Below, piece after piece: positions 1 through 62,466 of a stretch of 64,000 bases of DNA; position 1 is the first letter of the stretch, and each line of letters starts with the position of its first letter. Made by a program: the position numbers and the translations under genes. Where the stretch lies: assembly GCA_963701855.1 (NCBI GenBank), contig CAVPBK010000012.1, positions 1 to 64,000 on the forward strand, read 5' to 3'. The stretch comes from Nitrospirota bacterium (GTDB taxonomy: Bacteria > Nitrospirota > Nitrospiria > Nitrospirales > Nitrospiraceae). Below the pieces are notes generated by a model. It searched no databases, had not been told where the DNA came from, and saw nothing but the letters and a program-made list of their open reading frames with translations.

Positions 1-120
1 TTCGCCACTCCCACGGCAGCACCGGCTGCGGATCAGCCCACAATCCTTTCCTCGCCTCTCGCGCCGACTGCTCTAACTGCTCCAGTTCCGTATCTCCTAG
101 AGAATATTTTCGATACCAGC
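1..120 (-). pseudogene. Thermonuclease (SNase-like) 3' remnant
   Basis: Minus strand translates WYRKYSLGDTELEQLEQSAREARKGLWADPQPVLPWEWR, matching the C-terminus of the long copy at 48198-48704. Confidence 0.85.
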
Positions 121-358
121 GAGCCCACGATGCAGGCTGATTCTGTTCGATCCGATGTGTGAGAGAATAAAGCCCGTGCCGCCACACACAATGCCCTTCT
201 TCAGCATGGCGTCAGTCGCTCGGCCATCTCACTTCGAAAGAGTTTTCCGGACACCATTAGGTGATTCGCGGCCGCTGAAAAATCCATCTGTTCTTAACCG
301 TTTGGGAACGAGCCCAATGTCACTACCAGAAAATTCTCACGCATACATTCAGAAACTT

Positions 359-1006
359 TCAGAGACTCTTCATTAACCGGACGACCTTACCCCACACCTT
401 GTCCTGTTTCGATAATAGAAGGTTTTCATACCTTGGGTTCAGGGGATGGAGTATGTAGTGGCTTTCGATATATTCGACTTGTCTGAAGAGAGCGGTTTCT
501 GGGTGCCCTCCCGGACAATGGACGATGACATAGTCTCCGGGCTTCCACTTGCAATCTGGATCCACAAAAATGATCTGCCCCTCCCTGAACATGGTCTCCA
601 TCGAGTCATCCTTTACTTTCAAGGCGACGGTGCGTTTCCCAAAAATGTCTGTCGTATCGAGCGTCGCTTCGGCATGGATGACACCAGGAAGGCTTGTGCT
701 TGTGATAATCTGACTCATGTGATACCAGTCCAACAGGGGAATCTTCCGAATGAGACCAGTAGCAGACTGAAGGGTGCGATCTGATAGATTAAGAATCACT
801 GTTGAGTGTGTCGACCCACCGGTCTGAAGTACATCCACATCCACCCGAAAATACCTCGTAAATTTGTCCCATACGGCAGAGTCTGTAGGGAATTCATTGG
901 CAATAATATTCGTGATCGTTTGCAGGGAAACCTCAATGGCCGAGGCCAATTCCTCTTCCGTCAACCCTTCCTCTAATTCTCTAAGAATAAGACTTCTCAC
1001 GTTCAC
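359..1006 (-). CDS. XRE-type HTH / S24 peptidase (LexA/CI-like) transcriptional regulator
   Basis: N-terminal HTH (GLTEEELASAIEVSLQTI), IPLLDW linker, S24 motifs ALKVKDDSM and LHPLNPRY. Confidence 0.85.
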   Translation of the reverse strand: MNVRSLILRELEEGLTEEELASAIEVSLQTITNIIANEFPTDSAVWDKFTRYFRVDVDVLQTGGSTHSTVILNLSDRTLQSATGLIRKIPLLDWYHMSQIITSTSLPGVIHAEATLDTTDIFGKRTVALKVKDDSMETMFREGQIIFVDPDCKWKPGDYVIVHCPGGHPETALFRQVEYIESHYILHPLNPRYENLLLSKQDKVWGKVVRLMKSL

Positions 1007-1119
1007 AGCTAGTACTCCGATCGTTTCCTAACGCAGAATTTGACCACCACTCCACACCAAAGGAAAGGGCAGCATAATGAAAATGCTATTCTGCATTGTG
1101 CGACAAAGCAAGAGGAGCG

Positions 1120-1195
1120 ACGGGAGGGGTGAATCGAGAAGGGCATAGGGGACTGGGAGGGGCGTATTCTAAGAGGGAAGCGAAGAACGGCGCAA
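1120..1195 (-). promoter_or_regulatory. Repeated promoter + leader module (copy 1)
   Basis: TTGCGC-18nt-TAGAAT followed by ATG CCC TTC TCG ATT (MPFSIHPSRR); lies upstream of the S24 regulator. Confidence 0.65.
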
Positions 1196-1210
1196 GGGCC
1201 ACAGGCCGTC

Positions 1211-1267
1211 AGCGAGGGGAATGCGCCGTTGACGATGCAAGCACTCTCCGAGCTGCTACGCAGCTAG
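1211..1267 (+). pseudogene. DUF72-like protein C-terminal remnant
   Basis: SEGNAPLTMQALSELLRS*, same peptide as the remnants at 52605, 61065, 61700 and 62413. Confidence 0.6.
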
Positions 1268-1429
1268 GTGCTTCTGGGCCACAAATTCACCGCAGAGAAT
1301 GCAGTTGTAGTGTCCTGCTGAAGGCCCCACGTCATTCCATTCCAATTCCAGGTTTAGATGCTCACATGGTGATCGATCCGTTCGCTCTTTCCATTTCACT
1401 CGTAAAGCAGCCGCTTGATTTATGGTCAT
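1256..1429 (-). CDS. Small Cys/His-rich protein (possible zinc ribbon)
   Basis: CEHLNLELE...YNCILCGE; paralogue at 16768-16959; AAGGAGG RBS. Confidence 0.6.
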   Translation of the reverse strand: MTINQAAALRVKWKERTDRSPCEHLNLELEWNDVGPSAGHYNCILCGEFVAQKHLAA

Positions 1430-1539
1430 GGGATTGCCCTCCTTTTGGGTGGCAGCGCACAAGAAATTCTATCATGGCTTGCCTGAAGGACTAAAGGTGG
1501 TGAGAAAACGGACAAACCAATCCGCTGGTTGAGGGACAA

Positions 1540-1983
1540 TCAAAACCTCCATATCGGTTTGCTCGCTCTGAGGTAGCCTAGGAGTATGTCTCTGCGAGAA
1601 ACGACGCCTACTAGCTTGCCTTCCGCGTCAACCACGGCAACCCGAATGAGATGTTTGCTCTGCAACAGCTGAATAATCTCCATCGCTGGTGTATCTTGAG
1701 TCACAGAGATGATCCCCTTGGTCATCATATCCCCTGCCGTCACCGTCGAGAGTTGTTTGCCCTCCGTGATTACCTTGAGTAAGTCGAACTCACTCACCAG
1801 CCCGACTACCTTGCCGTCACTGGCTACAATGGGAACGCTCCCAAACCCGCCTTCAGTGATCGCCCCAGCCAGCTTATCTCCCGTATCCTCAACATGGTAA
1901 TACGACACCACATTTTGCATGAACTGCTCTGCCTTGAGCGTTGTAAAATCATGGGGGCCTATCATGTATTCGACGCGTCGCAT
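1540..1983 (-). CDS. CBS domain protein
   Basis: Two CBS motifs (VPIVASDGKVVGLVSEFDLL; VAVVDAEGKLVGVVSRRDIL); GAGG RBS. Confidence 0.9.
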   Translation of the reverse strand: MRRVEYMIGPHDFTTLKAEQFMQNVVSYYHVEDTGDKLAGAITEGGFGSVPIVASDGKVVGLVSEFDLLKVITEGKQLSTVTAGDMMTKGIISVTQDTPAMEIIQLLQSKHLIRVAVVDAEGKLVGVVSRRDILLGYLRASKPIWRF

Positions 1984-2384
1984 AATAACACCTCCTATTC
2001 GGGGGTCTTGTTAGATTCTCCCTCATTGTCCATCCCTTTTCTCGTCTCGGTTACGACAAGGCAACAAGGTGTCGCTCCATTTTTTCGCGATCATCACGAC
2101 CGCAAACCATAAAAAGGTACAATCCATCGTTACTTTGGAGCATGAACCATACCTGATTTTGACTGATCGGCGAACTGGTGTGCTCTTTCACGATTCCAAT
2201 GACTTGACGCGTTCTAGAGCATGAAGCTGCGAGGACAAGGCCTAGCTCGGAGAGGCAAGGGTCCACAGTCAACTGAGAGGAGATGTGGCTATTTGCCACG
2301 ACAGCAACGTGCAGCTTCATGCTTGGGGGGATGGGGTGGAATCATTAGGAGGACTAGAATCGAACCTCGTTCAGGAAAAATCAA

Positions 2385-2543
2385 TTGACCAAAACCAAAA
2401 AAGTGGGCTAGCGGCAGCTTGAGGAATGAGCCCTAGTGGTACGTGACGGAACGTTGCAAAGGGTAGCGACGGTCGAGACGAAACGTGAAGGGCGTAGAGG
2501 TCTCGTAGGGAAGCGTATTCTAGGGGGGCAGATCAAACCGCAA
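2385..2543 (-). pseudogene. Degenerate promoter + leader module (copy 2) with adhesin-E-type N-terminal remnant
   Basis: TTGCGG-15nt-TAGAAT; start codon mutated to ACG; xPFTFRLDRRYPLQRSVTYH*GSFLKLPLAHFFGF. Confidence 0.6.
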
Positions 2544-3064
2544 GGAGGGGCGGGATTTGTTGGCGTGACGCAAACCGTCGTTTGTCCGGGTGCGCCCACC
2601 CAGATGATACGCTTCGGGTACCCATTTTATAACCAGGGCAACGACGTTCTGCTCAGCGCGGATGGCCAAAGCTTCGGCGACACCCATTTGCCTTTTTATT
2701 CCTTCCAGTTCACACGGCCGTAGGACCCCAGCCCCGGCCTACTCGTCCTTTCGCTACCGTGGTCGTCACGGTGCCCTTCGCGGACTTCGAAACCAAATCA
2801 CGTTCGCGTACCTTGCCGCGGTCTACGGACTCGGTGAAAGACGTGGAGGTGTAGGCGATGAAGCTGTTTCTCCCGTTCTTGGATCGACGCGAAAAGCCAC
2901 GGTTTGTAGGAGTCAGCCATTTCATATTCAGAGAGCTTTCTCGGCAGGCGGAGAGTCTATTGAGGACTCTCACGCCTAGCCATAAGTCCGTCGCGCCTCT
3001 CATCGGACCGGTCAGAATCAGGAAATTACTTGCAGGATGTGGCACCTAATGGCACACCTAGACC

Positions 3065-3352
3065 ATGAGCATGATACGGAGAAGGGCCTGGGTCAGCCTC
3101 GGAGGGAGTCTGTGTTTGGCCATCACCCTGAGCGCCTGCGGAGCCCTGCCTGCCACCTCAGTCAACAAGAAAAGTGATCCTGCTGCTGTCGACGCAAGTG
3201 TCGTCCGGGCCCTTCAGCGACACATCATAGAGCGAGAGAAACGCATTGCGGAGTTAGAGGCCCAGTTGAACGCCTTGAAGGTGATCGATCAGGACATGGA
3301 GAAACGGAGGCAGTCCAGCCGGCCACCCGCGACGTTGACGCCTATTGAGTGA
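3065..3352 (+). CDS. Hypothetical lipoprotein with coiled coil
   Basis: Lipobox LSAC; heptad-like REKRIAELEAQLNALK. Confidence 0.65.
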   Translation: MSMIRRRAWVSLGGSLCLAITLSACGALPATSVNKKSDPAAVDASVVRALQRHIIEREKRIAELEAQLNALKVIDQDMEKRRQSSRPPATLTPIE

Positions 3353-3423
3353 CCATCGTTCAGTGGGGTAGTTCCGTCACGATAGTTCATCAGTAAGAGT
3401 GATTGATCAAGAAAGGAGACAGC

Positions 3424-3768
3424 ATGACCGGGTTTGTCATGCGGAAGAATCACCGGCTCAAGAAATTGGTGCCGGTGCGGTACCTTCGGGACAAGATTGC
3501 CGGTGAAGGCATCATCAAAGATCTTTCGCTGACCGGGAGCTATATTACGGGGAATGCACCGGTCTCCGTAGGCATGGCGCTCGCCCTGCAAATTTTTGTG
3601 CCGGGAGACCCGGAGCCGTTGTTGATTGATCGCGCCATCGTGAAATGGGTCAAGGGATCTGAGTTCGGGGTGGACTTCGACACCCCCCAGCCGGAAGTGA
3701 CCCAGCGAATCACGCAGATCATCTCCGCACTGATCAAGACACAACATGGCTCTTCCCGTAGGGGATAA
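3424..3768 (+). CDS. PilZ domain protein
   Basis: RxxxR (RKNHR) and DLSxxG (DLSLTG) motifs; VKWVKGSEFGVDF. Confidence 0.85.
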   Translation: MTGFVMRKNHRLKKLVPVRYLRDKIAGEGIIKDLSLTGSYITGNAPVSVGMALALQIFVPGDPEPLLIDRAIVKWVKGSEFGVDFDTPQPEVTQRITQIISALIKTQHGSSRRG

Positions 3769-3816
3769 GAGAAGGGGACAACAGGTGCACGGCCCCCCAC
3801 ATGAATCTACCTGCGC

Positions 3817-3844
3817 TTTCGCCACTCCCACAGCGGCACCGGCT
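3817..3844 (-). pseudogene. Thermonuclease extreme 3' remnant
   Basis: Encodes PVPLWEWRK; TTCGCCACTCCCAC core shared with other copies. Confidence 0.7.
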
Positions 3845-4390
3845 AACCCTCAAGGATAATTCCCCGCCTGCAGGCGTACTTTCCCAATGAACTCCGCTTG
3901 CGCGTGTTTCAGCCCTTCCACGAACTGCGTAAGAGGGCCACTCCTTTCAGGATGACGTTCTGCCATAATAGAGGCCTTCCCCCTCGCGCACGTTTACCCG
4001 TTCACAATGTCGTGTAGGGGTGCCAGGACTAAGTCGCCCTCAAACGAAGTCCTCAAATCCTTCTTAAGCCTACGCAGCTCCTGTGAGAAACGGGCAACAT
4101 CGGTAGCATGATCGGGGCAGTTACTTGCGAAATCTTCCGAAAAATCGAGGGACGATAAGAGATAAGCGCGAATGTTCCAGAATGATGGGCTATCATCTGC
4201 TGGTTTCATAACACCCTCCTTACGGACAATTCCCCGCCACTCGATACCCCGCTTCTTCGGCCTCTGCCGCGCTATTAAACGCTACTCTGTTCTCTGTTCT
4301 GTGGTGCAACCTGGCTGTAGTTCGGACCGTCAGGCCAGTGATAGATGTGACTCTTTCGGTTGCCGATGACAGGATAAGGAGACGCTGAGG

Positions 4391-4831
4391 TCAAGGATGC
4401 AAAGTCTTGCCAGTAGCTCCTAAGAGTGGCGGACTACGAGAAGACGTACTGCCTTCGGTCTCAGCATCCAACGGTACGAGGCCTGACAAGTCCAGTGATT
4501 GCCCTCGTCTGGCCTTGCGATAGACCCACGGTGGGATGGGTGCCGGATCAACCCATAAGCCTTTCTTTGCCTCCCATGCATCCTTTTCCAGGCTTTCAAG
4601 CATGGAATCCTCCGGCGCATACTTCCGATACCACCAGCATCAGCCTTGCTTGACAAGTTCCTGATTGAGATTCATCCCATCGGGCAGGATCACATCGGCA
4701 ATGGCGCGCTTGTACTTGTCGTAGCCGTGGCTCTGTAGCGTGACTTCTTTCCCGAATACGAGGTCAGAGGCAGCCTGCTTCGCTCGTTTGCCGAACACCT
4801 GGCCTTTCTTAGGACAGTCGATGCTGCTCAG
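4391..4831 (-). pseudogene. Thermonuclease pseudogene, 5'-truncated with in-frame stop
   Basis: LSSIDCPKKGQVFGKRAKQAASDLVFGKEVTLQSHGYDKYKRAIADVILPDGMNLNQELVKQG*CWWYRKYAPE...GLWVDPAPIPPWVYRK. Confidence 0.9.
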
Positions 4832-4883
4832 TCATGAACGGACAGCCCAAGAGAAGGGCACACACTTACGTGGCCGATAAACG

Positions 4884-5750
4884 CTAAGGGAAAGAACCAC
4901 CTCTCCCAAACTGTTGATACGCGTGATGCTCGCACGCAGAGCGGAGGTCGTCAAACGCTTTGAGATCCTTGGGGAACCGATTCACACACCGGAGTAGAGC
5001 CTCTCCTAAGTGTTCGTCATTAGTTTTGTCCTCCAAGACCTGTAGTTTCCCCGTCAGATCAATGGGTGGGGCTTCCTCAGGATGTGTCGCATGCGGCAGG
5101 GGACGAGACGCTGAAGGTATGGGCGTCGGGGCAGCGGAATGAGCGCCCATGAGTTTCCAACTCTTCAGGCGACCGTCCTCATCGAGCACGAGGGTGAGCC
5201 TAAATTGTGGGTAGTCCCAAATGGCTTTGCCACTCTGGGGGTGGATGGTGATCGAGCGGGGTTGCCCCACTCGCTCCCAAATTTGATCATTACTCATCCC
5301 CACCTGGAGGGTCCGGTCAGGGACTACCTGGGCCACAGATGGAGAGCTGGCGGAGGGGCTCCCCGATCTGCCGCGTCGAACGAGACGTTCGAGATCTGCG
5401 GTCTGCACTCGCAGGAGCCGCCATACGTTTACCTTACTGGGTGCACAGCCTGGCGATTCAGGCGCTTCATACACCATTTGGGTCTCGATCGTGACACCCG
5501 CAATCTCGTGCGTTTGGGTGAAGTTCCGAATCTCCTGGACCGCTGACTCATAGGCCTGTTGTCGGCCAGCCTCAACGCTCGGAGCGCAGGAGGCACGGCC
5601 AGCAAAGAACATCTCATCACCAAAGCGGAACATCGCTTGTTCTGTCCAGAAGGGATGGGATAAGACATCATCGCCGTGGGCCGAGGAGACGAGTGAGGCT
5701 AGGCCGAGCACAATGACAAGTTGGCAATAAGACCGCATGGTGATCATCAT
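4884..5750 (-). CDS. Hypothetical exported protein
   Basis: 288-aa ORF with signal peptide (LASLVSSAHG); central LQVGMSNDQIWERVGQP resembles SmpA/OmlA-like motifs. Confidence 0.65.
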   Translation of the reverse strand: MMITMRSYCQLVIVLGLASLVSSAHGDDVLSHPFWTEQAMFRFGDEMFFAGRASCAPSVEAGRQQAYESAVQEIRNFTQTHEIAGVTIETQMVYEAPESPGCAPSKVNVWRLLRVQTADLERLVRRGRSGSPSASSPSVAQVVPDRTLQVGMSNDQIWERVGQPRSITIHPQSGKAIWDYPQFRLTLVLDEDGRLKSWKLMGAHSAAPTPIPSASRPLPHATHPEEAPPIDLTGKLQVLEDKTNDEHLGEALLRCVNRFPKDLKAFDDLRSACEHHAYQQFGRGGSFP

Positions 5751-5769
5751 TTCTGCTTCGCCACAATCT
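5747..5769 (-). pseudogene. ComEA/HhH gene extreme 3' remnant
   Basis: IVAKQK*, identical to the end of 6178-6283 and of 49756-50055. Confidence 0.6.
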
Positions 5770-5818
5770 GACTCTTGACTAGCGACTCTCTGTAGCGAGA
5801 GACCGGCCAGAATGGCGG

Positions 5819-6118
5819 CTATTGGCCCATTCCGGGAATGAACTGCTTTAAGGACTCCTCTTCTTTTTTCATGGTATCCCCCCCCGTCGGTGACAGGGCA
5901 GACAACTGATCTTTGGCGTGTTTGAGCGTGCCCATATTCTTTTGGAGCGCGTCCACGTTCTTCTCCATCTCGACCAGCGCGCTCCCGATCTGAGTAATGG
6001 AAGTTTTTAACCCGAAGAGTCCTTGGGCTGAGGCGACATGCAACGAGAGCCCTCCCATACCAAATCCGAGCAGGAACGCGGCAATCGTGACGATGTAGAT
6101 CGATCGTGTGGCTGTCAT
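5819..6118 (-). CDS. Hypothetical exported coiled-coil protein
   Basis: GGAGG RBS, signal/TM segment, heptad region. Confidence 0.6.
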   Translation of the reverse strand: MTATRSIYIVTIAAFLLGFGMGGLSLHVASAQGLFGLKTSITQIGSALVEMEKNVDALQKNMGTLKHAKDQLSALSPTGGDTMKKEEESLKQFIPGMGQ

Positions 6119-6177
6119 AGATTCCTCCCTGGTTGTGTGAATCCTATTTGCATTCTTGCGACGACGTGTAACCCCTC

Positions 6178-6283
6178 TCATTTCTGCTTCGCCACAATCT
6201 TGTATTTGATCCCCTCATCCGTGGCGCGTGGCAGGATCTTTTTCTGTACCAGTTCATCCCTCCGTGAATACGGTCGGCCCTTG
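6178..6283 (-). pseudogene. ComEA/HhH gene 3' remnant
   Basis: KGRPYSRRDELVQKKILPRATDEGIKYKIVAKQK*, near-identical to the C-terminus of 49756-50055; cut off by an IS3-like end at 6284. Confidence 0.85.
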
Positions 6284-6383
6284 TGACCTGCCCCCGTTTA
6301 TTACAGCTGGAGAGAATGTTGAAGTCAAAAGGGATCTGGAATGATTTGCTTTGCAGCCAACCGTAAACTATTGTCCGAATCCG

Positions 6384-6977
6384 TTATACCGATTTAGCCG
6401 CAGCCATTTGTCTCACAGTAGCCAAACCTTTCCAATCTTCCATGTCTTGATCAGGTTTTTCTGTCCGATATTTCGCGTAGAGAGCAATACCTTCGAGATC
6501 TTCTAGAATATCGACCCGAACTCCCTTTTGGCGAAGCATTTCTTCGTTGCCCGAAGCACTTGTTACATCACCTACAGCGACCCTGTTGAACTGGCGCATA
6601 TAAATCAACGTCGCACATACATCACAGGGGCTCAATGTCGTAAAAATTGTCGTCAGGCTGAAATCGAGGCGCCCGGCATCGCGTATCGCGGATGTTTCGC
6701 CATGATTATACGGGTGGTTCTCCTGGACGAGTCTGTTATGCCCTTTGCCTAAAATCTGGCGGGTTTCATTGCTGATAACCACGCCACCAATCGGACAGCC
6801 GCCTTCATCATATCCCTTCTGTGCCAACAGAACCGCGATACGCATGAAATCCTTGTCCGTGAGTTTCCTGAAAAAGCCTTCCTCGACTATCTGCGGCAAG
6901 CTTTTGGTTGGAAAATGGGCAATAGTATTCAACACCGCATTTGTGACAGGCGTGTCTTGAGTAATGAACGCGTTCAT
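6384..6977 (-). CDS. Zn-dependent nucleoside/cytosine deaminase (CDA fold)
   Basis: GGCPIGGV, GHN, HGE and SPCDVC motifs. Confidence 0.9.
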   Translation of the reverse strand: MNAFITQDTPVTNAVLNTIAHFPTKSLPQIVEEGFFRKLTDKDFMRIAVLLAQKGYDEGGCPIGGVVISNETRQILGKGHNRLVQENHPYNHGETSAIRDAGRLDFSLTTIFTTLSPCDVCATLIYMRQFNRVAVGDVTSASGNEEMLRQKGVRVDILEDLEGIALYAKYRTEKPDQDMEDWKGLATVRQMAAAKSV

Positions 6978-7374
6978 GCCCGTTTCTCTCCCATCTTTTG
7001 AAATTGAAGTCACTTAAGCCTGAGCCGTTGCTGCCCCCTTTTCTTCCCTCAGATGGCCAGGCCGTCCACGCGCCCAGAAATGTTGGATTGCACGGTCCGA
7101 CCGTCATTCTTGCCCTAGTGCGCCTGATGAAGCACTGCGATCACACGCAGCGGAACACCGATACCAGCGGCAATCTTTATCGGCAGAGCGATCACTTCGA
7201 ATCCCAGATCAGGAAGAACGAGAAGATCACCAAGATTTTCGAACACCGGTACGTTATGGGAGAGGAGCACGATATGCGTCTCAAATCCAGTGGATTGCCG
7301 CTGTTTCTTCTCTCGACCATCGGATTGCGGTTTCAGGGATCACAATGCATAAGGCCGAACAGCGCATAGGTGAT

Positions 7375-8136
7375 TCACCGCCGTGCTCGAATTTGGAGAA
7401 AGTCTTGATGGACTGAGAGGCGATGGGTGCCGTCGGCGGTGGCAAAGTGCGTTGCGACATAGGCTTCTAGGTCGCGCCGGGCGGGAGGCCGGCTGATCGG
7501 CAGGAGATTGAGCATGAATTCGGCGACGGTATAGGCCGCAGCAGGCTCTGAAGTCTCCACATGGGCGAGGTCGAGAGTCGTGGTGACGTCATAGCGGTCG
7601 CCGTGTTTGGTGCGGAAGGTGTCGGCGAGCCCGCCGAGGTCGAACCGATGGCCGAAGAAATATTCTAGCATGGTCATGCAGGCGGTGCCACGATTCTGAA
7701 GCACGACGACCGTGACGCCGGCGGGCGACATCCAGGAGACCAGCCGTTCGAGGTGCGCGAGCCACTCTTCAGCCGGAATGTAATAGAGTGTGTGAGAACA
7801 AAGGACAAAATCTCCTTTGGTCTCTGGACTGGCGGCTAAAATCGACGTGTCGATGGCATCGACCTGCGGGATGGCACGCTGGAGCTGGGTCAACAGATAC
7901 GTGTTCGGTTCGATCGCAATGGTGCGGTCGAAGGCCCCGGCGAAGATGCGGGTGAGTTCCCCGTTGCCGGCGCCGGCGTCGATGAAGACCTTTCGCACGG
8001 GCAAGTCGTCCACCAACTTCTGCAACAGTCGCTTCGCATTCCGCTTCTGGTCGGTGTGGGCGAGAAAGACTTGAAAGGCGTGCTTGTAATCCTCGCCCTG
8101 CGAGTCAAATACGCGAATGGGTTCCGATTGTGTCAC
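7375..8136 (-). CDS. Class I SAM-dependent methyltransferase
   Basis: FIDAGAGNG motif I, AIEPN, DFVLCSHTLYY; start codon uncertain. Confidence 0.85.
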   Translation of the reverse strand: MTQSEPIRVFDSQGEDYKHAFQVFLAHTDQKRNAKRLLQKLVDDLPVRKVFIDAGAGNGELTRIFAGAFDRTIAIEPNTYLLTQLQRAIPQVDAIDTSILAASPETKGDFVLCSHTLYYIPAEEWLAHLERLVSWMSPAGVTVVVLQNRGTACMTMLEYFFGHRFDLGGLADTFRTKHGDRYDVTTTLDLAHVETSEPAAAYTVAEFMLNLLPISRPPARRDLEAYVATHFATADGTHRLSVHQDFLQIRARR

Positions 8137-8544
8137 GGTGGTGTCCTGTTGAGGGTCGGATGGGTGTGTCAGACCGTTGATGGCGTCGCAGCATACCCCT
8201 TTCCCCGCGAGAATGCACCAAGACTTCCTAGGGAAAACGGCCACACTGGATGCATGTGTCAGAGCGCACCGCAGGCCAGCGGTGGCACATCAGGGAGAGA
8301 GGCCAACGTTCTGCTCTGAGCAGAACGGCTATAGCAGGGGCCAAGACTAGGCAGACCATGGAATAAGCCCGTATAATTCCGACTGAAGCCGCTAGAGTAG
8401 CTACCGAACGCCAGGCACTCTCAGTAGGCCTTCAGCCTAGTCCTCGATCGGGCAGGGCGTCAAGTACGAGTTGCCGGTTCAGGCCACAACAAAAAATAGA
8501 CTCAGCGACCCTCGTGTCAATGTCACCTGTCGAATTGTCTACTA

Positions 8545-9096
8545 TCATGGGACAGCGCGTCCTGGCTCGTGCTTCTGAATGCGGGCCACCACATCGTATA
8601 TCTTCTGCTCCGTCAGCAGCGCGCCCTTGACGTATTCCTGTACGCGCCCCTCTTGATCGATGAACACGCTGACCGGCAACCCAAACACCCCAAATTGATT
8701 TGCCACTTTGTTATCACGATCCATCAGAACTTGGTAGGTGTAGCCGTGCTGTCTGATGTGTTCGCGCACCTCGGCATCGCCTTCGAGTTCGTCAATTGCC
8801 AGTATGACAAACCCATTGTCCCGAAGCCTGTCGTAGGTGGCCTGCATGGCCGGCATTTCCGTTGTGCAGCCCTTGCACCAGGTGGCCCAAAAGTTCACGA
8901 GCACGATCTTGCCGCGATATTGGCTGAGGCTCTGTGACTTGCCCTCCAAGTCGATCAGGCTGAAATCCTCGGCCTGCATACCGACGGTCGGGACTCGCGA
9001 GCCCATGCTCCACACCAGGCCGCCGCTGACTACGAGTGTGACACTCAAGGCCAGCAGCCCCACCAGGGCTTTGCTGTGGGTCGTTTTCAAGTGCAT
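8545..9096 (-). CDS. TlpA/ResA-family thiol-disulfide oxidoreductase
   Basis: N-terminal anchor, LVNFWATWCKGC, GLPVSVFID. Confidence 0.9.
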   Translation of the reverse strand: MHLKTTHSKALVGLLALSVTLVVSGGLVWSMGSRVPTVGMQAEDFSLIDLEGKSQSLSQYRGKIVLVNFWATWCKGCTTEMPAMQATYDRLRDNGFVILAIDELEGDAEVREHIRQHGYTYQVLMDRDNKVANQFGVFGLPVSVFIDQEGRVQEYVKGALLTEQKIYDVVARIQKHEPGRAVP

Positions 9097-9225
9097 CGCT
9101 CCCTCCAATTGGGTTGTTGGCGTCAAGGGCGTGCATGGGGAGGGATCAGTATGGCGTGGCCCCGTGAGACCGTCAAGGCGCAGAGGATTCCTCAGGCAGT
9201 TCTGCCATCCATATCTTTACTGCCT

Positions 9226-9361
9226 CTTTCGCCACTCCCACGGCGGAACCGACTGTGGGTCGGCCCATAACCCTCGCTTGGCCTCTCGCGCGTCCTTCTC
9301 TAGCCCTTCCAGCACCGTATTCCCTGGCGCATAATTTCGATATCACCAGCACCAACGGTCT
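9226..9361 (-). pseudogene. Thermonuclease 3' remnant
   Basis: DRWCW*YRNYAPGNTVLEGLEKDAREAKRGLWADPQSVPPWEWRK. Confidence 0.9.
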
Positions 9362-9573
9362 ATGACCAGCGTATGAATAACATAGAGCTTCGCGCGAGAC
9401 ATGCGAGAAAAGCACGATGAGCAAGACTGCGAGAGAAGCACAGGCTGAAGGCCGAAGTTTTCGGAACATCATCCTTCAGCCATCGAACCCTTGCCATCCC
9501 ACCACTTTCGCCCGTCTCTCCCGCCCGCCCTTCTGGGAGTGACCGATCATTTGTGTTAAGCTCACTCTCACCG

Positions 9574-10714: not shown

Positions 10715-10724
10715 TCCGTCTTGG

Positions 10725-51024: not shown

Positions 51025-51043
51025 GGGCCGATGCGATTGGTTA

Positions 51044-52600: not shown

Positions 52601-52604
52601 GTCG

Positions 52605-52965: not shown

Positions 52966-53352
52966 TCACCGCAGTGCCACCGTCGCGGCGGTGGGAGTCT
53001 TGAGAAGACGCCTTAGGGTGTGTCCCAGGAGATCCAGCGAGGAGCCTTTTACAATGAACTCGCTCACCCCCAGCGCACGAACCTGCTGCTCCGTCTCGGG
53101 GGTACTGTCCCCCGTTAACATGATCACCGGCTGCTTGAGATCGACACTGCGTATCTGCTTCAAGACCGTGACCCCATCGAGGTCCGGCATGTTCAGATCA
53201 AGCACAATGACATCGGGGTGTGCTTGGCGATACAGCTGTAGGCCCTTGCAACCGTTGTCGGCGAGTATCACATCATATCCCTGCTGACGGAGTAGCAGGT
53301 CGAGCAGCGTTCGAACGTTCGGTGCATCATCAATGACGAGAACCTTCGCCAT
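52966..53352 (-). CDS. Single-domain response regulator
   Basis: VLVIDD, VLDLNMP, MLTG, FIVK. Confidence 0.92.
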   Translation of the reverse strand: MAKVLVIDDAPNVRTLLDLLLRQQGYDVILADNGCKGLQLYRQAHPDVIVLDLNMPDLDGVTVLKQIRSVDLKQPVIMLTGDSTPETEQQVRALGVSEFIVKGSSLDLLGHTLRRLLKTPTAATVALR

Positions 53353-53382
53353 GGTTACCCTTTCCACAATTTAATACCGGCC

Positions 53383-53646
53383 TCAGCATTCGAGGCTTTG
53401 ACTCGCGCTTTCCCCATCGGCGACTCGACGTTGGACCGGAGTTACAACCCCTGGACGGAGTGCAATCTGATAGGTCGGGCAACCAAGTTGTCGCATCAAT
53501 ACCCCTCCATGCCTCGACATCCGATCCACGGCGGTAAATACCTGACTCCAACTGTAGCTTCGGGATAGGTGCACGACGACATCATCTAGGCAACAGGGGC
53601 CACCGCTCCGCAACTTTTCAATGATCGACTCTTCTAGGTGCGTCAT
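53383..53646 (-). CDS. Small winged-helix-like hypothetical protein
   Basis: SWSQVFTAVDRMSR; paralogue of 61338-61589. Confidence 0.65.
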   Translation of the reverse strand: MTHLEESIIEKLRSGGPCCLDDVVVHLSRSYSWSQVFTAVDRMSRHGGVLMRQLGCPTYQIALRPGVVTPVQRRVADGESASQSLEC

Positions 53647-54019
53647 GGGTAGAACCTCCGGGTGAAGTGAGGGGCATGAGAAAGCATGCGTGCAGACAGA
53701 AATGCGGCGCGTCGGAACTAGAATATGGCCTCACCCGCCGCCCTTTAGCGCGGATGATGAACCTGCCCACCTCCTCCATGCTGTCTTCTTTTATACACTT
53801 CTGCGAAAAATCTGAGTGGGTTTCCCACCCCTGCGTTGCTTAGATGAAGATCGGGTTGAATCTGCTGACTGAACAATTTTGACCAGATTGCCTTCCTCCT
53901 AGCCTGATGCAGTTTCTGCCCCTAGTACCAACTTGGCCTAGCGTTCTCAAGGGGAGCTGGCCATGGGAGTCACACCGATGGCGACATTTAATCCCCAGAC
54001 GTTCCTCAAAGAGATCGGC

Positions 54020-55292
54020 AGCGAACGCCATGCTCAAAAAGGCCAGCCTAGGGCATGTGTGCGGCGCCGGTGCTATGGCTACGTCGAGATCGTCTCGTCC
54101 GTGCTCGATGCCTACGGGCGGCCCAAGCGCGATCACGTAGAACGGAAAATCAACGAGCAACAAGCGGACGTGGTCCGGCAGATCTTCCGCCTCTGCGCTG
54201 CCGGCAAAGGGATGGTGTCGATCGCCAAGCAACTGAACGATGAGGGTAAGCCGGCCCCACGAAATAGCCAGGGCCGTCAGATCTCCTGGAGCCCGTCGTC
54301 CGTGCGCAGCGTGCTCTTCCGGCCACTGTACCGCGGCATCGTGACATGGAACCGGACCAAGAAGCGCAATACCTGGGGCATTCAACAGCAGCGCAAACGC
54401 CCGGAGAAGGACTGGCTCAAGATCAGCATGCCGGAGCTTCAAATTGCCTCCGAAGCGGAATGGAGGGCTGCCCATGATCGGCTGACCGCAACGCGTGCCG
54501 TGTACTTACGCGGGACGAAAGGCGAGTTGTGGGGAAGGCCGGCCAGCACGCTCGATTCCAAGTACTTGCTCACAGGGCTGGTGAAGTGCGGCGCATGCGG
54601 AGGAAGTATCTATGTAAAGAGCAGCTCCCGGAAGGGAGAACGTGCGCTTTTCTATGGCTGTATGACCTTTCATCTTCGCGGACGGACCGCATGTGCCAAT
54701 AGTCTTCTGACGCCCATGGATCGGGCTAACGAGGAAGTGCTCCGCGTGCTCGAGCACGATGTGTTGCATCCGAACGTCATTGCGACGGTGGTGCGGAAGG
54801 CCGTGGATAAGTTTCGGACGTCGGAACGGGAATGGAAGGAACGCCGGGAGGCGCTACACAAGCAAATCTCCTCGATCGACATTGAGCTCGGGCGGCTCGT
54901 GGCAGCCATCTCATCCGGAGGAGACATCCCGGCACTGGTCGCGGCGGTCAAAATAGCGAATGACCGAAGAACAGTGCTGTCGCAGGATCTGGCGGAGGTC
55001 GATAGCCAACAACATTCGGACGCCGATTATGATCAGCTAGAAAAAGAACCGCGGGCACACTTCGAAGCGTCCTGGCAGACGATATTAACCAGGTTGTTCA
55101 GACTCGCCAGATCCTCCGAAAACTTCTCGGCCCGGACCGCCTCCCCTTCATCCCCATGACGAATGAGCGTGGCTCTCAGTATGAATTTAAAGGGACCGCT
55201 TCGATTGGGCGGTTAGTGGCTGGCCGTGCAAAGGCCCTGGTGTCCCCAACGGGACCCGTCAAACCAGGGAGCAACTATAGAGCACGCGCTTA
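54020..55292 (+). pseudogene. Large serine recombinase lacking the catalytic N-terminus, frameshifted
   Basis: CYGY, ADVVRQIF, IAKQLN, YRG, LLTGLVKCGACGG zinc ribbon, coiled coil; second frame ends LVSPTG. Confidence 0.85.
55238..55254 (-). repeat. tRNA(Glu)-like 3'-end fragment (att-like) inside the recombinase 3' end
   Basis: TGGTGTCCCCAACGGGA identical to 23660-23676. Confidence 0.6.
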
Positions 55293-55323
55293 GCTTCAAG
55301 CTCGAGCTGTTGGTGGTGGCCAC

Positions 55324-55731
55324 ATGAGCACCCGTCTAGCCCTCCCCGCCCGCCGCCACCACATCACACAGAAAGTGAAAATCGCCGGACAACGGACGCT
55401 CTACCTCAGCGTCCATGACGATGAACGGCCGGCAGAAATCTTTCTCAGAGTAAAGGGGTCCGACTGTTCCTCCGAATTGATCGGTCTCTACGACGTCATC
55501 GCCCGCCTAATGAGTTTGGCCCTGCAGTACGGTGCTCCACTTGAGAAGGTCGGGGATCTCCTCGCAGGGGCTAAATTTGCTCCATGCGGCCCGGTCTCTG
55601 GGCACGCTTACCTCAAACAATGTTCGAGTCTCCCGGATCTGATCGGTCGGCATCTCTTGGTGGCGTACTGCGATCGAGAGGAGTTGGCCCCTGCGCCTCT
55701 GTCTCCGGTCGAGAAAGAGTGTCCGAGATGA
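55324..55731 (+). CDS. TSCPD-like domain protein (NrdJ C-terminal-like)
   Basis: LPARR..ITQKVKIAG..LYL...PAEIF, ARLMSLALQYGAPLE, SSLPDLI. Confidence 0.75.
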   Translation: MSTRLALPARRHHITQKVKIAGQRTLYLSVHDDERPAEIFLRVKGSDCSSELIGLYDVIARLMSLALQYGAPLEKVGDLLAGAKFAPCGPVSGHAYLKQCSSLPDLIGRHLLVAYCDREELAPAPLSPVEKECPR

Positions 55732-55773
55732 TTGGCGCCGACACACATTCTTTGTGAGGGAGAAAGGAGCATC

Positions 55774-56037
55774 ATGACCACCGTCAGACAACACAAGCGC
55801 TCTCGAGATTCTCGATCGACGGTCAACGCCATGCTGGACCAACCACGGCGGAGCCCCGCCTGGAAGCGGCGACGACAAGCCGCTCGGACGGTCTTCCGTC
55901 GATTTCTGAAAGAGGTGGATAGCTGGGAGAAGAATCCCCGCTATTTAGGCATGACGTTCCACGGAATCAAAGACGGCGATCGCTTGGGAGAGAAGCTGGT
56001 CCAGTTCGCTCGAGACGTGGTCGCGGGGCGCCGATGA
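55774..56037 (+). CDS. Hypothetical basic protein
   Basis: AAGGAG RBS; operon-like. Confidence 0.5.
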   Translation: MTTVRQHKRSRDSRSTVNAMLDQPRRSPAWKRRRQAARTVFRRFLKEVDSWEKNPRYLGMTFHGIKDGDRLGEKLVQFARDVVAGRR

Positions 56038-56156
56038 GTAGAGAGAAAAGCAAATCGCGGATGGGTTCAAGGACGCCGGGGCTCAAACGAAAACATGATG
56101 AAGCTGATCCCCCCATCGTATACAGAAATTCGGGTGGCTCCCGCGGTGAGATTCGC

Positions 56157-56585
56157 TTATTTGGGCGAAATGCCTGGTGGGAATGGTCCGGTGGCAGCCG
56201 GCAGTTGAAGCTGCTGGGCGCAGCGTCCAATGAGGGGCCAGGCTTGCTGCGCGAGCGCCTGCCCATCACGATGGCCTTCTCGTAGTTCCACTTGGGTGAG
56301 CTGAGTCAGAGCGACAAAATGCAACTCAAACCCTACGATCCGTTGAGCCAGGAGCGATTGTCGTGTGACGGTCAGAAAAAACTCCTGCTGATCAGGCCCC
56401 CCACTGAGGTGCGCCTCATAAGGAGAGTCGATGGCTTCGATCCCACGAAGGACGCAGTAGGAAAGGGCAGGAGCCGGGGCCGAAAAATTCCCAACCTGAG
56501 TCGTGGGCAGCTGACGAACCTCGGCCAGGCTCGCGACGCAGCCTGAGATCAGCAGGGCTAGACACAAGAGTGAGAGACGACGCAT
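56157..56585 (-). CDS. Hypothetical lipoprotein
   Basis: MRRLSLLCLALLISGC lipobox. Confidence 0.7.
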   Translation of the reverse strand: MRRLSLLCLALLISGCVASLAEVRQLPTTQVGNFSAPAPALSYCVLRGIEAIDSPYEAHLSGGPDQQEFFLTVTRQSLLAQRIVGFELHFVALTQLTQVELREGHRDGQALAQQAWPLIGRCAQQLQLPAATGPFPPGISPK

Positions 56586-56800
56586 GCAGGAAATCCTCGC
56601 ACAGCCCGCGGCCGGGCCCAAGCGTCATTACCGAAACATGACCCCAAGCACGGTGCCGGTCGCGACGATGACACCCCGGGCCAGCAATGCCTCGAAGAGC
56701 GAGCGCATTTCAGCCATGGTCTTTACCCCTTCATGTTGAAGATAGCGCCGATTGGGCATTTCGCAAACCTCGGAGTCACCCTAGAAGTGAAAGGAACATC

Positions 56801-57322
56801 ATGGGCGGTCTGACTCCGAAACAAGCGCGGTTTGTTCAAGAGTATCTCGTCGATGTGAACTCGACGCAGGCAGCAATTCGAGCTGGGTACAGCAAAAAGA
56901 CCGCGCAGGAGCAGTCGTCCAGGTTGTTATCAAATGTTATGGTTTCGGCGGCGGTTGCCAAAGAGCAGCACGCACTGGGGAGAAGAGGGGAGGCGGAGAA
57001 GGTGATCGCGGAGTTGGCGCTAATTGGTTTTGCCAACATGGGGGACTACGTGAATCTCTCTGATCCAGACAAACCAATGGTTGACCTTTCGAACCTCACC
57101 CCAAAGCAAGCATCAGCGATTGCAGCGGTCACGTACGAGAAGCGAGGGATAGAGCGACGTGTGAAGATCAAGCTACACGATAAGCTCAATGCCTTGGTGA
57201 CTCTCGGAAAGCATCTTGGGCTATTCAGTGAACGTCACTTACTCGGTGGTCTCGATGGCGGCGAGGTCAAGCAAGTCCATTCGATGGAAGTGGCGTTCGT
57301 CAAACCCCCGAGGTCACTATGA
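56801..57322 (+). CDS. Phage terminase small subunit
   Basis: LTPKQARFVQEYLVDVNSTQAAIRAGYSKKTA; KIKLHDKLNAL..LGKHLGLF. Confidence 0.9.
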   Translation: MGGLTPKQARFVQEYLVDVNSTQAAIRAGYSKKTAQEQSSRLLSNVMVSAAVAKEQHALGRRGEAEKVIAELALIGFANMGDYVNLSDPDKPMVDLSNLTPKQASAIAAVTYEKRGIERRVKIKLHDKLNALVTLGKHLGLFSERHLLGGLDGGEVKQVHSMEVAFVKPPRSL

Positions 57323-57371
57323 AGGTCAGCTTCCCGACACGTTGGGGGAGGATGCGTAGAGTAGTCGGGAC

Positions 57372-58238
57372 TCACTGAGCCGGTGAAGAGGCCGGCCATC
57401 CCATGGCAAGGTCCGCCACGATCGTCCCAATGACGACTTTGGCCTTCATGCGAAGCGGAATCCGCCTCGCGTCATTGGTGAACCATACCCGAATGTTCCC
57501 CTGGTTGAGGAAGATACCTTGGAACGGCATCACGACCAACACCCGAATAGTTTCGATCGTACCCCATGCACCCCTGATGGTCTCAATCTTTTCCACGAGT
57601 ACGTCTAGCTGATAATTCTTTTTATCATGGTGCACATTCATCGTCAGAGACGACCCTGGGTAGGGCCGTAACTCACTGCGGGCATAGTAGAGACAGGAAA
57701 TGGCATCTTGAGTGTGTGGCAGGATCGGTAATGTTTCCGTCGACCCTCCTTTGACCTCTGTGACTGTGCCCTCTTTTTGATGAAAGCTGTACTCGATGTC
57801 TTCTTTCTTTTTTCCTTCTCGTCGCCGAAAGCTCAAGTGTTCTGGGAGCAAGGTCTCGGGATCCACCAGCGACTCCACCCGGTTATCCACGGGGAAAAAT
57901 TTCGTGATGGCAGGCCGCGACTGTGCGGTGGTCACCAATTTTAGAAGGGGAGGATTTCCGTCTGTCCCAGCAGTGACTCCCATGACTGCCGTCCCGGCCG
58001 TGATATTCAGCCAAGTGATCGTGTAGGTGAACTGTTCTCCGATGTGGAAGGGGCGCCCTGAAGGGAGCGGGCTGCTGTCCCCAGCCCACGAAACCGTCAG
58101 ATTCATGGAGCTCAGGATCAGGGCTACCAGTACGCGAACCACTCCGATGGGCACACAATAACCGCCACCCATTCGCGCTATTATCCTCGCCAGGGGTTCA
58201 CTTGAGACCGAAGATGGCGCAGATGAACCATGCCACAC
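57372..58238 (-). CDS. DUF3108-like protein
   Basis: GEQFTYTITWLNITAG, IRVWFTNDARRIPLRM; start uncertain. Confidence 0.75.
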   Translation of the reverse strand: MWHGSSAPSSVSSEPLARIIARMGGGYCVPIGVVRVLVALILSSMNLTVSWAGDSSPLPSGRPFHIGEQFTYTITWLNITAGTAVMGVTAGTDGNPPLLKLVTTAQSRPAITKFFPVDNRVESLVDPETLLPEHLSFRRREGKKKEDIEYSFHQKEGTVTEVKGGSTETLPILPHTQDAISCLYYARSELRPYPGSSLTMNVHHDKKNYQLDVLVEKIETIRGAWGTIETIRVLVVMPFQGIFLNQGNIRVWFTNDARRIPLRMKAKVVIGTIVADLAMGWPASSPAQ

Positions 58239-60895: not shown

Positions 60896-60991
60896 ATATG
60901 ACCCTAGAATTTCGGCCCTAGGTCCGTGTTCTTTTCACATTCACCGCAGATTCTGGTCACCAGCAAGTCCTTCCTTTTCCTCTTCGAAGAT

Positions 60992-61030
60992 CATGGCCGG
61001 ATTGTAGGAGGGAACCGAACGAAGGCGCAA
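60992..61030 (-). promoter_or_regulatory. Repeated promoter module (copy 10), upstream of SulP
   Basis: TTGCGC-18nt-TACAAT. Confidence 0.65.
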
Positions 61031-61064
61031 GGGCTACCGGCGCTACGTGGGGCACTAGCCATAG

Positions 61065-61200
61065 CGAGAGACGGTGGAGCTCGTTAGGAAGGGCCATCGC
61101 AGAGAATCGGCGAGCCTATGTGTTGGTCAATAATCGTGCGGAAGGTAATGCGCTGTTGACGGTGGAAGGGCTTGTGGGAATGCTACGCGAGGATACCCAA
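61065..61200 (+). pseudogene. DUF72-like C-terminal remnant
   Basis: RRAYVLVNNRAEGNALLTVEGLVGMLRE. Confidence 0.7.
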
Positions 61201-61337
61201 AGGCCCGACCCCCTTTCGGAGCCGAGCCATTTATTTCAGATTCCGCCATGGTCGCACTGCATGCCCATGGAGGCGAGTATGCCTGCAGAGGGCTTCCATA
61301 GCGGTTTCTGATCCAACGGGCGTTCGCTTCTCGCAGA

Positions 61338-61589
61338 CTACCTGCTCAGACTTGATTGCATCTCCTTCGCACTCGGTGCTGACATGAATTCTGTTAGCCG
61401 CGAGCCGAGTGAGATCTGATAGGTCGAGAAACCGACTTGACGAAGGAACACCCGCCCGTCCCTCGACATGCAATCTACAGCACCGAATACCTCTCCCCAA
61501 CTGAAATTAGGAAGGGCCGAGACGACCTCATCAAAACAGCGTGGATCACTCTGTAGCTTTTCAAGAATCGCTTCTTCTATGGGTAGCAT
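61338..61589 (-). CDS. Small winged-helix-like hypothetical protein
   Basis: SWGEVFGAVDCMSRDG; paralogue of 53383. Confidence 0.65.
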   Translation of the reverse strand: MLPIEEAILEKLQSDPRCFDEVVSALPNFSWGEVFGAVDCMSRDGRVFLRQVGFSTYQISLGSRLTEFMSAPSAKEMQSSLSR

Positions 61590-61699
61590 GGCGTGAGACC
61601 TCCGATTGAAGTGAGGTGCGCAGGTTACCGGGCATGCTAACAGGAGAGGGCGATGTGCGGAACTAGGAAATGGCCTACGAAACCTGCCAGGAGCCAGAA

Positions 61700-61815
61700 T
61701 GTTTCAGTACAGCTGGTGCGCCAGGCTGTCGGAGCGCGTATGTCCTGGTCAACAATCGGGCGGATGGCAACGCCGTTGACGGTGCAAGGCCTTGTGGGGA
61801 TGTTGCGGGGCGGGG
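61700..61815 (+). pseudogene. DUF72-like C-terminal remnant
   Basis: VQLVRQAVG / AYVLVNNRADGNA / PLTVQGLVGMLRG, with indels. Confidence 0.7.
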
Positions 61816-61831
61816 ATTGTGGAGGGATTGT

Positions 61832-62074
61832 TCATTCACCGCCCATCCCTGGAAACTTGCCTTGAGCCAATTTCTGCATCATCTCCATGAGTTGCTGCGT
61901 TGCTTCATTGCCTTGGATATTGCGCATCTGTGCTGTGCGCGCCGTCTCTTGATCACAGGCGCTGATATGCACAGCGCGCCCACCAATTTTCTCCTCTGTG
62001 CGAATGTCTGTCACCACTAATGTCTTCCCATCCACAACGATGAGACTCCCTGTCTTTATTTCCACGTTCTCCAT
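61832..62074 (-). CDS. Hypothetical protein
   Basis: GGGAG RBS; 80-aa ORF. Confidence 0.55.
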   Translation of the reverse strand: MENVEIKTGSLIVVDGKTLVVTDIRTEEKIGGRAVHISACDQETARTAQMRNIQGNEATQQLMEMMQKLAQGKFPGMGGE

Positions 62075-62412
62075 GTCTGTACTCCCTTTCTGTGATATTG
62101 GACATGACGGATAATAAGCAAGACGGGGAATGTGGTTCAAGCGAAGAACGGAAGTTTGGTACCTTTCCCCTCCGTTATCGTTTCACCTTTCCTCTCAAGG
62201 TACTCGTCCTTCCCTCATCTTTTACCATGAGCCGAACGGTAGTGCGCGTGGGGCGCAGAAGCAAATAAAGAAAGGTGGCACATGCCATAAGGTAAACACC
62301 CAAGCCAAGATGTTCCATAATTCACCCTCCCTTTCGCTAAACAAGCTAACCAACCAACATTAGTCACGCATTAGTAGAAGATTAAATGGAACTTATGCAT
62401 CGGTAGAAGGAC

Positions 62413-62466
62413 GAAGGGACCGCGCCGTTGACGGTGCAGGCGCTCTCTGAAATGCTGCGACGTTAA
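62413..62466 (+). pseudogene. DUF72-like extreme C-terminal remnant
   Basis: EGTAPLTVQALSEMLRR*. Confidence 0.6.

Follow-up and report, generated by a model that had tools for sequence, protein, structure and literature searches.

The DNA considered here comprises 64,000 nucleotides of contig C12 of a Nitrospirota genome (the window, i.e., the whole stretch analyzed, w1-64000, with w denoting window position) and probably forms the distal part of a composite genomic island spanning at least 71 kb, which is anchored at a tRNA-Glu(UUC) gene, was built by serial integration of mobile elements and was afterwards shuffled and eroded. Mobile elements integrated successively at the 3' end of this tRNA gene, as the tRNA-derived repeats described below demonstrate; the process itself is ordinary and known, while some details are unusual. 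In the window, genes of unrelated function alternate with fragments of a few recurring backbone genes, i.e., a thermonuclease (SNase, PF00565), a ComEA-like gene, the 3' end of a DUF72-like gene and a promoter/leader piece derived from a small PilZ gene. An earlier note on this DNA had proposed that this array represents a locus-specific, integron-like gene-capture system lacking the integron integrase IntI. The genome (labeled G000; 4.3 Mb, 97% complete; C3, C4, C6 and so on are its other contigs) was compared with genomes of the same genus (labeled G005, G012, G015, G016 and so on), of which 18 were used for the SNase survey, 80 for searches with the window segments 1-12800, 22000-25200 and 38001-58000, and 81 for the flank of the tRNA. 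Open reading frames (ORFs) were called across the window and their translations were scanned against Pfam; a scan of the window against Rfam yielded zero matches at gathering thresholds.

The tRNA gene scan found none inside the window and the anchoring tRNA lies beyond it. In the scan of the whole contig, tRNA-Glu(UUC) is located at C12:71533-71610, 7.5 kb past the window end, and a tyrosine integrase (C12:69871-71435) adjoins its 3' end. Inside the window, the 3' end of this tRNA is repeated exactly at two places over 17 and 22 nucleotides (nt), in both cases in the orientation of the tRNA (Table 1). The 17-nt repeat separates the integrase element (55255 to C12:71532) from an element with a large serine recombinase, which has lost its Resolvase domain in the window and has an intact counterpart of 600 amino acids (aa) with the Resolvase domain present in G016. 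In the three congeners G016, G042 and G092, a segment starting at w54025, w54074 or w54611 and ending at w55254 overlaps the tRNA itself by the same 17 nt, showing that there the inner element sits directly at the tRNA and that the outer 16 kb are absent. In three further congeners (G072, G005, G034), w24977-25200 is only 44-77 nt away from the tRNA. On the far side of the tRNA, the flank is matched in 72 of 81 genomes of the genus; ~55 of 69 long flank rows start at query position 90-94, which is the exact tRNA 3' end (hand count), and many contigs of other assemblies break there. Moreover, the stretch 24676-24935, in which a C-terminal integrase fragment lies beside a tRNA-Arg(CCU) 3' half, is the relic of another integrative element. 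Taken together, the integrase at the tRNA, the tRNA 3' repeats and the segment up to 55254 abutting the tRNA in three congeners argue for growth by ordinary serial integration. The presence of recombinase relics together with tRNA-derived sequences in the window, reported in the earlier note, is thereby confirmed (serine recombinase, integrase fragment, tRNA-Glu and tRNA-Arg repeats). Genome-wide, 47 rows of tRNA fragments outside tRNA genes were obtained, corresponding to ~45 places in 4.3 Mb, suggesting a very large past of integrative elements, and integrases or integrase fragments are found in or beside most SNase clusters. The scattered tRNA fragments are mostly 3' halves of ~45 nt and many are distant from their cognate tRNA.

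A further characteristic of the window is that each backbone family keeps one strand. All 14 SNase copies or relics, comprising 3 near-full genes, 8 further loci found by tblastn, 1 N-terminal piece and 2 short 3' cores, lie on the minus strand, as do 3 of 3 ComEA pieces (PF12836, tblastn), and 5 of 5 DUF72-like 3' ends lie on the plus strand, the two shortest of which have weak E-values (0.12 and 0.21) and are backed by the repeat family D11. The earlier note was right in this respect, and also in the strand of the promoter/leader repeat (~110 nt; 9 of 9 window copies on the minus strand in the nhmmer search); the earlier note had counted ten copies, and a tenth is located outside the window at C12:67073. 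Family membership is given by the profile, three SNase genes scoring 71-90 bits and one fragment 44 bits at a PF00565 cut-off of 21, and a putative signal peptide was read by eye in each of the three near-full proteins. The SNase repeats are decayed coding sequence, in frame with the C-terminal WCWWYRKY...GLWADPQPVPPWEWR part of the protein, and many of them hold stop codons. The repeat copies of the window are 60-84% identical to one another, which agrees with the earlier statement that they diverged and do not result from a recent simple duplication.

The remnant pattern is genome-wide and genus-wide and does not represent a local system. The genome-wide search gave 49 SNase matches merging to 48 loci on 8 contigs, a few of which may reflect the non-SNase tails of two queries. 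Outside the window are 37 of the ~48 loci, on 7 other contigs and on both strands (21 plus, 16 minus), and likewise 33 of the 43 leader copies detected by nhmmer, a scatter which the earlier note itself had named as speaking against its proposal. SNase matches were present in 18 of 18 same-genus genomes sampled, with 1 to 40 per genome. Their strand is uniform in most clusters (window 14/14, C4:271-281 kb 5/5, C8 4/4, G015:C23 7/7, the last with one-stranded arrays in which 3/3 leaders also agree) and mixed in some (C5 3/4, C6:1515-1525 kb 2/3). DUF72 is represented in the genome by a single intact gene and by 3' fragments, at least 11 of them, on 7 contigs. Compared with the orthologue in G015, the SNase relic at w10-130 shows 90.1% identity, spacers show 88.5-90.4% and a CBS gene 98%; the relic diverges at the spacer rate, and this single comparison fits silent relics. 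Furthermore, most SNase clusters lie in regions with a GC skew close to zero (~0.01), vs. ~0.05-0.06 elsewhere in the genome, fitting acquired or rearranged DNA. Leading-strand bias was considered as the cause of the polarity and rejected, as agreement with the local GC skew was limited to 32 of 48 SNase loci and to 28 of the 43 leaders, and the skew is weak inside the islands.

The leader is composed of an upstream region constituting a putative promoter, the 5' untranslated region and the opening ~24 codons of a small gene of the PilZ type, which the genome encodes in two intact 110-aa versions (C6:1518725 and C6:1582472). In the window, the leader copy at 39811 runs into a frameshifted PilZ gene, and the ORF 50508-50972 consists of 24 PilZ codons fused to a signal/transmembrane segment and an Adhesin_E domain (PF16747). 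Just 11 of 43 leader copies open an ORF of at least 80 aa, suggesting that most of the copies are relics as well. Relative to G015, the leader at 1101-1200 has an identity of 96.9% and is thereby above spacer DNA, a single comparison which would fit a leader that is still functional. A consensus promoter scan flagged 0 of 5 leader copies within 38500-51500; a putative -35/-10 pair (TTGCGS, 17 nt, TASAAT) was read by eye. Chimeric genes in which 24 PilZ codons are followed by a signal/membrane segment and an Adhesin_E or other domain were also observed at C3:161564, C11:113287 and C4:11788. A small PilZ-like cassette (43948-44443) is present in 12 of 12 fetched congener loci with 78-94% identity, and at its junction the SNase core follows in 6 of 13 copies compared and different sequence in 5 others.

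Mechanistically, each arrival displaced the older elements away from the tRNA and left an exact repeat of the tRNA 3' end. Since site-specific integration is directional, related elements would land in one orientation and their shared genes would keep one strand. These shared genes may have been a small PilZ gene, together with its promoter, and a secreted SNase partnered by a ComEA-like gene. Homologous recombination among paralogous modules together with illegitimate joins and deletions would subsequently have shuffled single genes and eroded the backbone, leaving behind silent SNase, ComEA and DUF72 3' ends and PilZ 5' promoter/leader pieces, which now stand before other genes. A dedicated capture machinery would not be needed for this. 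From the earlier proposal, the growth by repeated co-oriented arrival can thus be kept, with the tRNA att repeats marking the route and the known integration at tRNA-Glu as mechanism; the locus-specific integron-like system without IntI is not supported, the delivery route being this classical integration.

Comparison with the congeners revealed how far the modules have moved. In the segments searched, no block shared with a congener exceeds 2.5 kb, the longest non-self blocks being 1.7 kb (38001-58000) and 2.5 kb (1-12800); shared are single-gene modules of 70-97% identity on scattered contigs. Of the relatives, G015 is the nearest found; a 12-kb stretch of its contig G015:C9 contains five window modules in changed order and orientation. 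Within the genome, window segments recur at more than a dozen other places, some of them 92-99.9% identical. The comparison of the locus among relatives proposed in the earlier note showed modules shuffled in both order and orientation; a conserved backbone carrying exchanged cargo was not seen, nor was an identical gene order.

Several observations connect these exchanges to the backbone repeats. From position 41074 onwards, which is inside an SNase core, the TerB module of G000 shares 97% identity with that of G015, and the relic upstream only 83%. The window and its paralogue on C3 differ by a 4.2-kb stretch bordered by ComEA pieces. Of 20 ends of blocks shared with G015, 8 fall into backbone repeats, which cover 8.1% of the window (P ~2e-4), although two of these eight are contig ends and the G015 loci were picked for matching, which weakens the support that the proposed shuffling draws from this excess. 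The excess makes recombination at the repeats, and their role as crossover points, plausible. The earlier idea of backbone genes serving as recombination anchors is supported to this extent; a dedicated gene-capture system is not shown. Four metagenome runs gave no solid variant in which a cassette was excised or inserted, with contigs dropping rare variants, and the repeat-to-repeat joints in the public-run contigs have sides of 21-58 nt and were read as repeat cross-matches.

Some findings weigh against serial integration followed by shuffling and erosion. There are two tRNA-Glu repeats only for 14 SNase copies, so the five SNase copies crowded into 39-51 kb cannot be explained by serial integration alone. 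Past the last tRNA repeat lie the leftmost 23 kb of the window, whose island membership is argued from their content and from the position of cydA, which in G012 and G083 is found at a distance of 10-14 kb from the flank of tRNA-Glu. Moreover, C-terminal SNase relics exceed N-terminal ones by ~2:1, with a per-residue coverage of ~36 in the C-terminal third vs. 15-19 elsewhere, an excess for which this reading offers only an inferred explanation. The left edges of the SNase relics cluster as well, with ~10 of them within 8 nt of the WCWWYRKY codons and 7-9 short relics starting just upstream of a 27-nt core carrying 0-3 mismatches; this clustering is not obviously predicted by simple decay, though the detection limit piles up short relics. 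Edge clustering and C-terminal excess may stem from crossing-over at the sole long identical blocks, from progressive trimming combined with the detection limit, or from a true recombination site.

Alternative explanations were weighed against this background. It is extremely unlikely that the array is an assembly artefact created by chimeric joining of repeats in a metagenome-assembled genome. Such an artefact would fit the start of the contig inside an SNase relic and the breaking of public short-read contigs at repeats. However, contigs from four public soil runs of four studies, mostly 95-100% identical, cover the 18 kb examined (30 of 30 bins; 29 of 30 in run X5) and bridge the relic junctions at 46599-48461, 39072-40453, 41444-43143, 49767-51174 and 44423-44828, the same relic junctions occur in G015 and other species, and copies as diverged as these would neither collapse nor be mis-joined. 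A true new cassette system, in which a dedicated site-specific recombinase acts on the SNase core (CCGCC-N8-GGCGG) as an attC-like site, is very improbable. It would account for the short inverted repeat in the core and for the breakpoints gathering nearby, but the inverted repeat can be attributed to codon choice, and the 17-nt core motif is found in many phyla among the matches listed since it codes for PPWEWR, the conserved terminus of SNase proteins. Furthermore, none of 19 genome matches to IntI (TIGR02249) exceeds the cut-off (best 80.8 bits vs. 265), no recombinase is located beside any core, the two Resolvase matches lying elsewhere, and an attC-like fold was absent in a screen of the 12 SNase 3' repeats themselves (consensus -3.4 kcal/mol, 1 of 22 pairs compensatory). 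With no IntI found and no attC-like fold in these repeats, the integron reading was rejected. Capture by IS91/ISCR elements was also considered; PF04986 had no match here, and likewise none in the control genomes.

In a different role, the repeats would be portable homology arms, one being the PilZ leader (~110 nt) and the other the ~125-nt SNase 3' end, whose core of 27-40 nt is near-invariant; the DNA between them would replace or add to another unit via RecA and cargo behind the promoter would be retained, working integron-like without a dedicated recombinase. Such an exchange of cassettes by homologous recombination is unlikely. It agrees with the minus strand reading roughly as leader, 1-5 cargo genes and SNase several times over, with the upstream end of the TerB module and the block ends described above, with several modules being bordered on one side by the SNase core in two or more species, with the high identity of the leader at 1101-1200 and with the single strand kept in most clusters. 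Nevertheless, arms of 60-84% identity would recombine inefficiently outside the core, the few ORFs opened by leaders mark most of these as relics, the testable SNase relic evolves like spacer, many module junctions look descended from one old event rather than from repeated ones, and the four metagenome runs contained no excision or insertion variant with solid flanks. Quite doubtful, too, is an origin of the short 3' ends of SNase, DUF72 and ComEA as att relics of elements targeting the 3' ends of these genes, whose attP would carry a copy of the target gene end as tRNA-targeting elements carry tRNA 3' halves. The short SNase ends (~30-45 nt) and DUF72 ends (48-54 nt) do match the size of the tRNA halves (17-60, mostly ~45 nt), the lone intact DUF72 gene borders an island and is outnumbered by its 3' fragments, and a region devoid of SNase genes has a cassette with an SNase core on either side, at a spacing of 1.67 kb. 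But 0 of 23 SNase cores are within 3 kb of the 22 tyrosine-integrase matches (distances by reading), the two Resolvase-domain matches of the genome are not near a core either, the left edges of the short relics spread over ~25 nt, and longer relics of 100-340 nt form the majority. The broadest version, in which the PilZ-derived leader and the SNase 3' end bracket exchangeable cargo across the Nitrospira genus and shuffle modules between islands and species, giving an integron-like outcome by homologous recombination or a yet unnamed recombinase, is regarded as similarly improbable.

Two ideas on the relic edges were tested and rejected. The relic edge octamer GCTGGTGG is not over-represented as expected for a Chi site (331 observed vs. 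338 expected), and its strand skew of 155 to 78 is ordinary among G-rich words. Hairpins upstream of the 125-nt relic junctions have a mean of -2.53 kcal/mol (n=10) vs. -2.41 for 3000 random 32-mers (P = 0.40).

Table 1. Backbone copies, integration relics and neighboring features of the window.
Feature	Position	Strand	Basis or remark
att relic, exact 17-nt repeat of tRNA-Glu(UUC) 3' end	55238-55254	-	same strand as tRNA
Older att relic, exact 22-nt repeat of tRNA-Glu(UUC) 3' end	23660-23681	-	same strand as tRNA
Large serine recombinase relic (Recombinase and Zn-ribbon domains, Resolvase domain lost)	53963-55159	+	Pfam
Tyrosine-integrase C-terminal fragment	24676-24885	+	tblastn matches of the ORF fall on integrase loci
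tRNA-Arg(CCU) 3' half, 42 nt, beside integrase fragment	24894-24935	-	tRNA search of contig
Terminase small subunit gene, phage/satellite relic in tRNA-proximal element	56687-57322	+	PF03592, E 3e-32
SNase gene, intact, 168 aa, predicted secreted	48198-48704	-	PF00565, E 2.4e-25
Run ending in SNase 48198-48704: MarR-like, ComEA-like, orf, orf	50052-50348, 49756-50040, 49375-49719, 48759-49157		
SNase gene with altered C-terminal tail	46118-46792	-	PF00565, E 1.3e-20; translation read
SNase gene losing frame near 3' end	44423-45070	-	PF00565, E 1.2e-19; two tblastn pieces in different frames
SNase 3' core relic, short, on promoter side of small PilZ cassette	~43900-43945	-	sequence reading
SNase 3' relic, ~125 nt, directly upstream of TerB gene (39996-40922)	41045-41167	-	tblastn
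SNase N-terminal fragment (~aa 32-62), cut after RLSGI, joined to leader copy	39852-39938	-	repeat family D5
SNase 3' relic upstream of DedA/VTT gene 33081-33593	33679-33867	-	tblastn
SNase 3' relic, then partial second PilZ cassette (31883-32150, 90% identical to 44277-44542)	32098-32199	-	
SNase 3' relic	30993-31154	-	tblastn
SNase 3' relic	10555-10713	-	tblastn
SNase 3' relic upstream of TlpA/AhpC-type gene 8545-9126	9226-9381	-	tblastn
SNase pseudogene (aa 57-168, two stop codons)	4505-4846	-	tblastn
SNase 3' core relic, short	3816-3843	-	fuzzy match, 2 mismatches in 28 nt
SNase 3' relic at contig start	2-130	-	tblastn; G015 orthologue 90.1% identical
Leader copies	50919-51033, 1101-1200, 2442-2550, 12637-12748, 25966-26076	-	nhmmer, alignment
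Leader copies, continued	39702-39811, 43060-43170, 43767-43855, 48018-48083	-	nhmmer
Small PilZ-like cassette (gene 44050-44436), convergent with SNase gene 44423-45070	43948-44443	+	sequence reading; no Pfam match
ComEA-like gene	49756-50040	-	PF12836
ComEA relics	6181-6282, 45783-45839	-	tblastn
DUF72-like 3' end, corresponding to aa 234-294 of intact gene C3:156630-157517	52599-52781	+	tblastn
DUF72-like 3' ends, others	1211-1258, 61090-61191, 61704-61808, 62407-62460	+	tblastn
IS110-family insertion sequence	13241-14409	+	three further genome copies, 99.6-99.9% identical

Next to the backbone families, the window contains other multi-copy components. The IS110-family insertion sequence has its further copies at C6:360704-361872, C9:507868-509036 and C13:97307-98475, and the near identity of the four suggests recent activity. 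The copies have ~167 nt of non-coding DNA ahead of the transposase and three of them share a similar right flank. Insertion of IS110 into SNase relics was considered and rejected, since the four left flanks are unrelated and none lies within SNase sequence. At w1211-1442, a DUF72-like 3' end and the next ~170 nt form a multi-copy unit that recurs on C6, on C9 and three times on C11; it is 96.1% identical to G015 and thereby above spacers, possibly owing to a family of small ORFs on the other strand. Small secreted proteins (23837-24457, 32583-33035, 45477-45767) constitute a family with ~35 copies in the genome that share a conserved C-terminal domain of ~70 aa without Pfam match, and its copy 23837-24457 holds two to three tandem 108-nt repeats (23935-24150).

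Several single loci can be added. The segment w34630-37034 is an SRAP-umuD-umuC module with umuC split into the overlapping ORFs 34630-35037 and 34982-35899; it is also present in G015:C9 with 80.6% identity and flipped relative to the other shared modules. Two FKBP-like genes (w27116-27973 and w33822-34600) form an inverted pair ~6.4 kb apart with arms that are ~70-77% complementary. The genes cydAB, encoding cytochrome bd oxidase (20534-22959), are accessory, the cydA part being matched in ~15 of 80 congeners. In run X2, one contig has a 182-nt deletion at w42320-42503 with long flanks, a real variant located in or beside a gene with a SEC-C motif. On another contig, at C6:1151557-1153261, the two same-strand SNase 3' cores 1.67 kb apart mentioned above flank a copy of a widely conserved 550-nt gene, the other copy of which is located at C6:34457-35031; the junction of the first core is common to G077 with 91% identity.

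The island shares features with several known systems. Orphan arrays of Rhs and contact-dependent inhibition (CDI) genes are thought to arise by recombination displacing older modules and keep a conserved 5' core before the variable toxin tip. As in these, gene fragments of the same orientation alternate here with small unrelated genes; however, the fragments are 3' ends of a 168-aa SNase, and their neighbors are mutually unrelated and include no consistent immunity partners. Tandem site-specific integration of integrative and conjugative or integrative and mobilizable elements at one att site yields composite, co-oriented elements between att repeats, which resembles the situation found here, whereas no conjugation or mobilization genes were identified in the window and most of its recombinases are relics. 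Integron arrays are likewise polarised, with small cargo often of no known function, a repeat at the cassette ends and possibly a shared promoter. In contrast to them, there is no IntI and no attC-type fold, the repeat is decaying coding sequence of variable length, the cargo units are often multi-gene with some on the other strand, and the arrays are spread across many tRNA-linked islands. The tycheposon islands of Prochlorococcus (bioRxiv 10.1101/2020.12.28.424599) are similar in that incoming elements insert at the island tRNA and displace the older ones inward, that fragmented integrases and partial tRNAs are scattered and that acquired material accretes distally. Both tyrosine and large serine recombinases and a satellite-like relic bearing terS are also common ground. 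Unlike them, the island described here belongs to a different host phylum and has co-oriented SNase, ComEA and DUF72 3' relics and PilZ leader relics, which recur across the genus. A replication module (primase, helicase, polymerase) did not appear in the general Pfam scans of the ORFs, which included no search targeted at it. Full-text searching of the literature yielded no publication on SNase relics or on islands of this kind in Nitrospira.

As a summary, the window provides a clear example of how an island at a tRNA gene grows by serial integration in a nitrifier with little-studied mobile DNA. It also illustrates the amount of relic DNA that is kept, with ~48 SNase loci, 43 leaders and ~45 tRNA fragments in 4.3 Mb. 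If the repeats did indeed guide the exchange of single-gene modules, which is an unproven idea, this would constitute a simple, machinery-free way by which small secreted or periplasmic proteins may spread.

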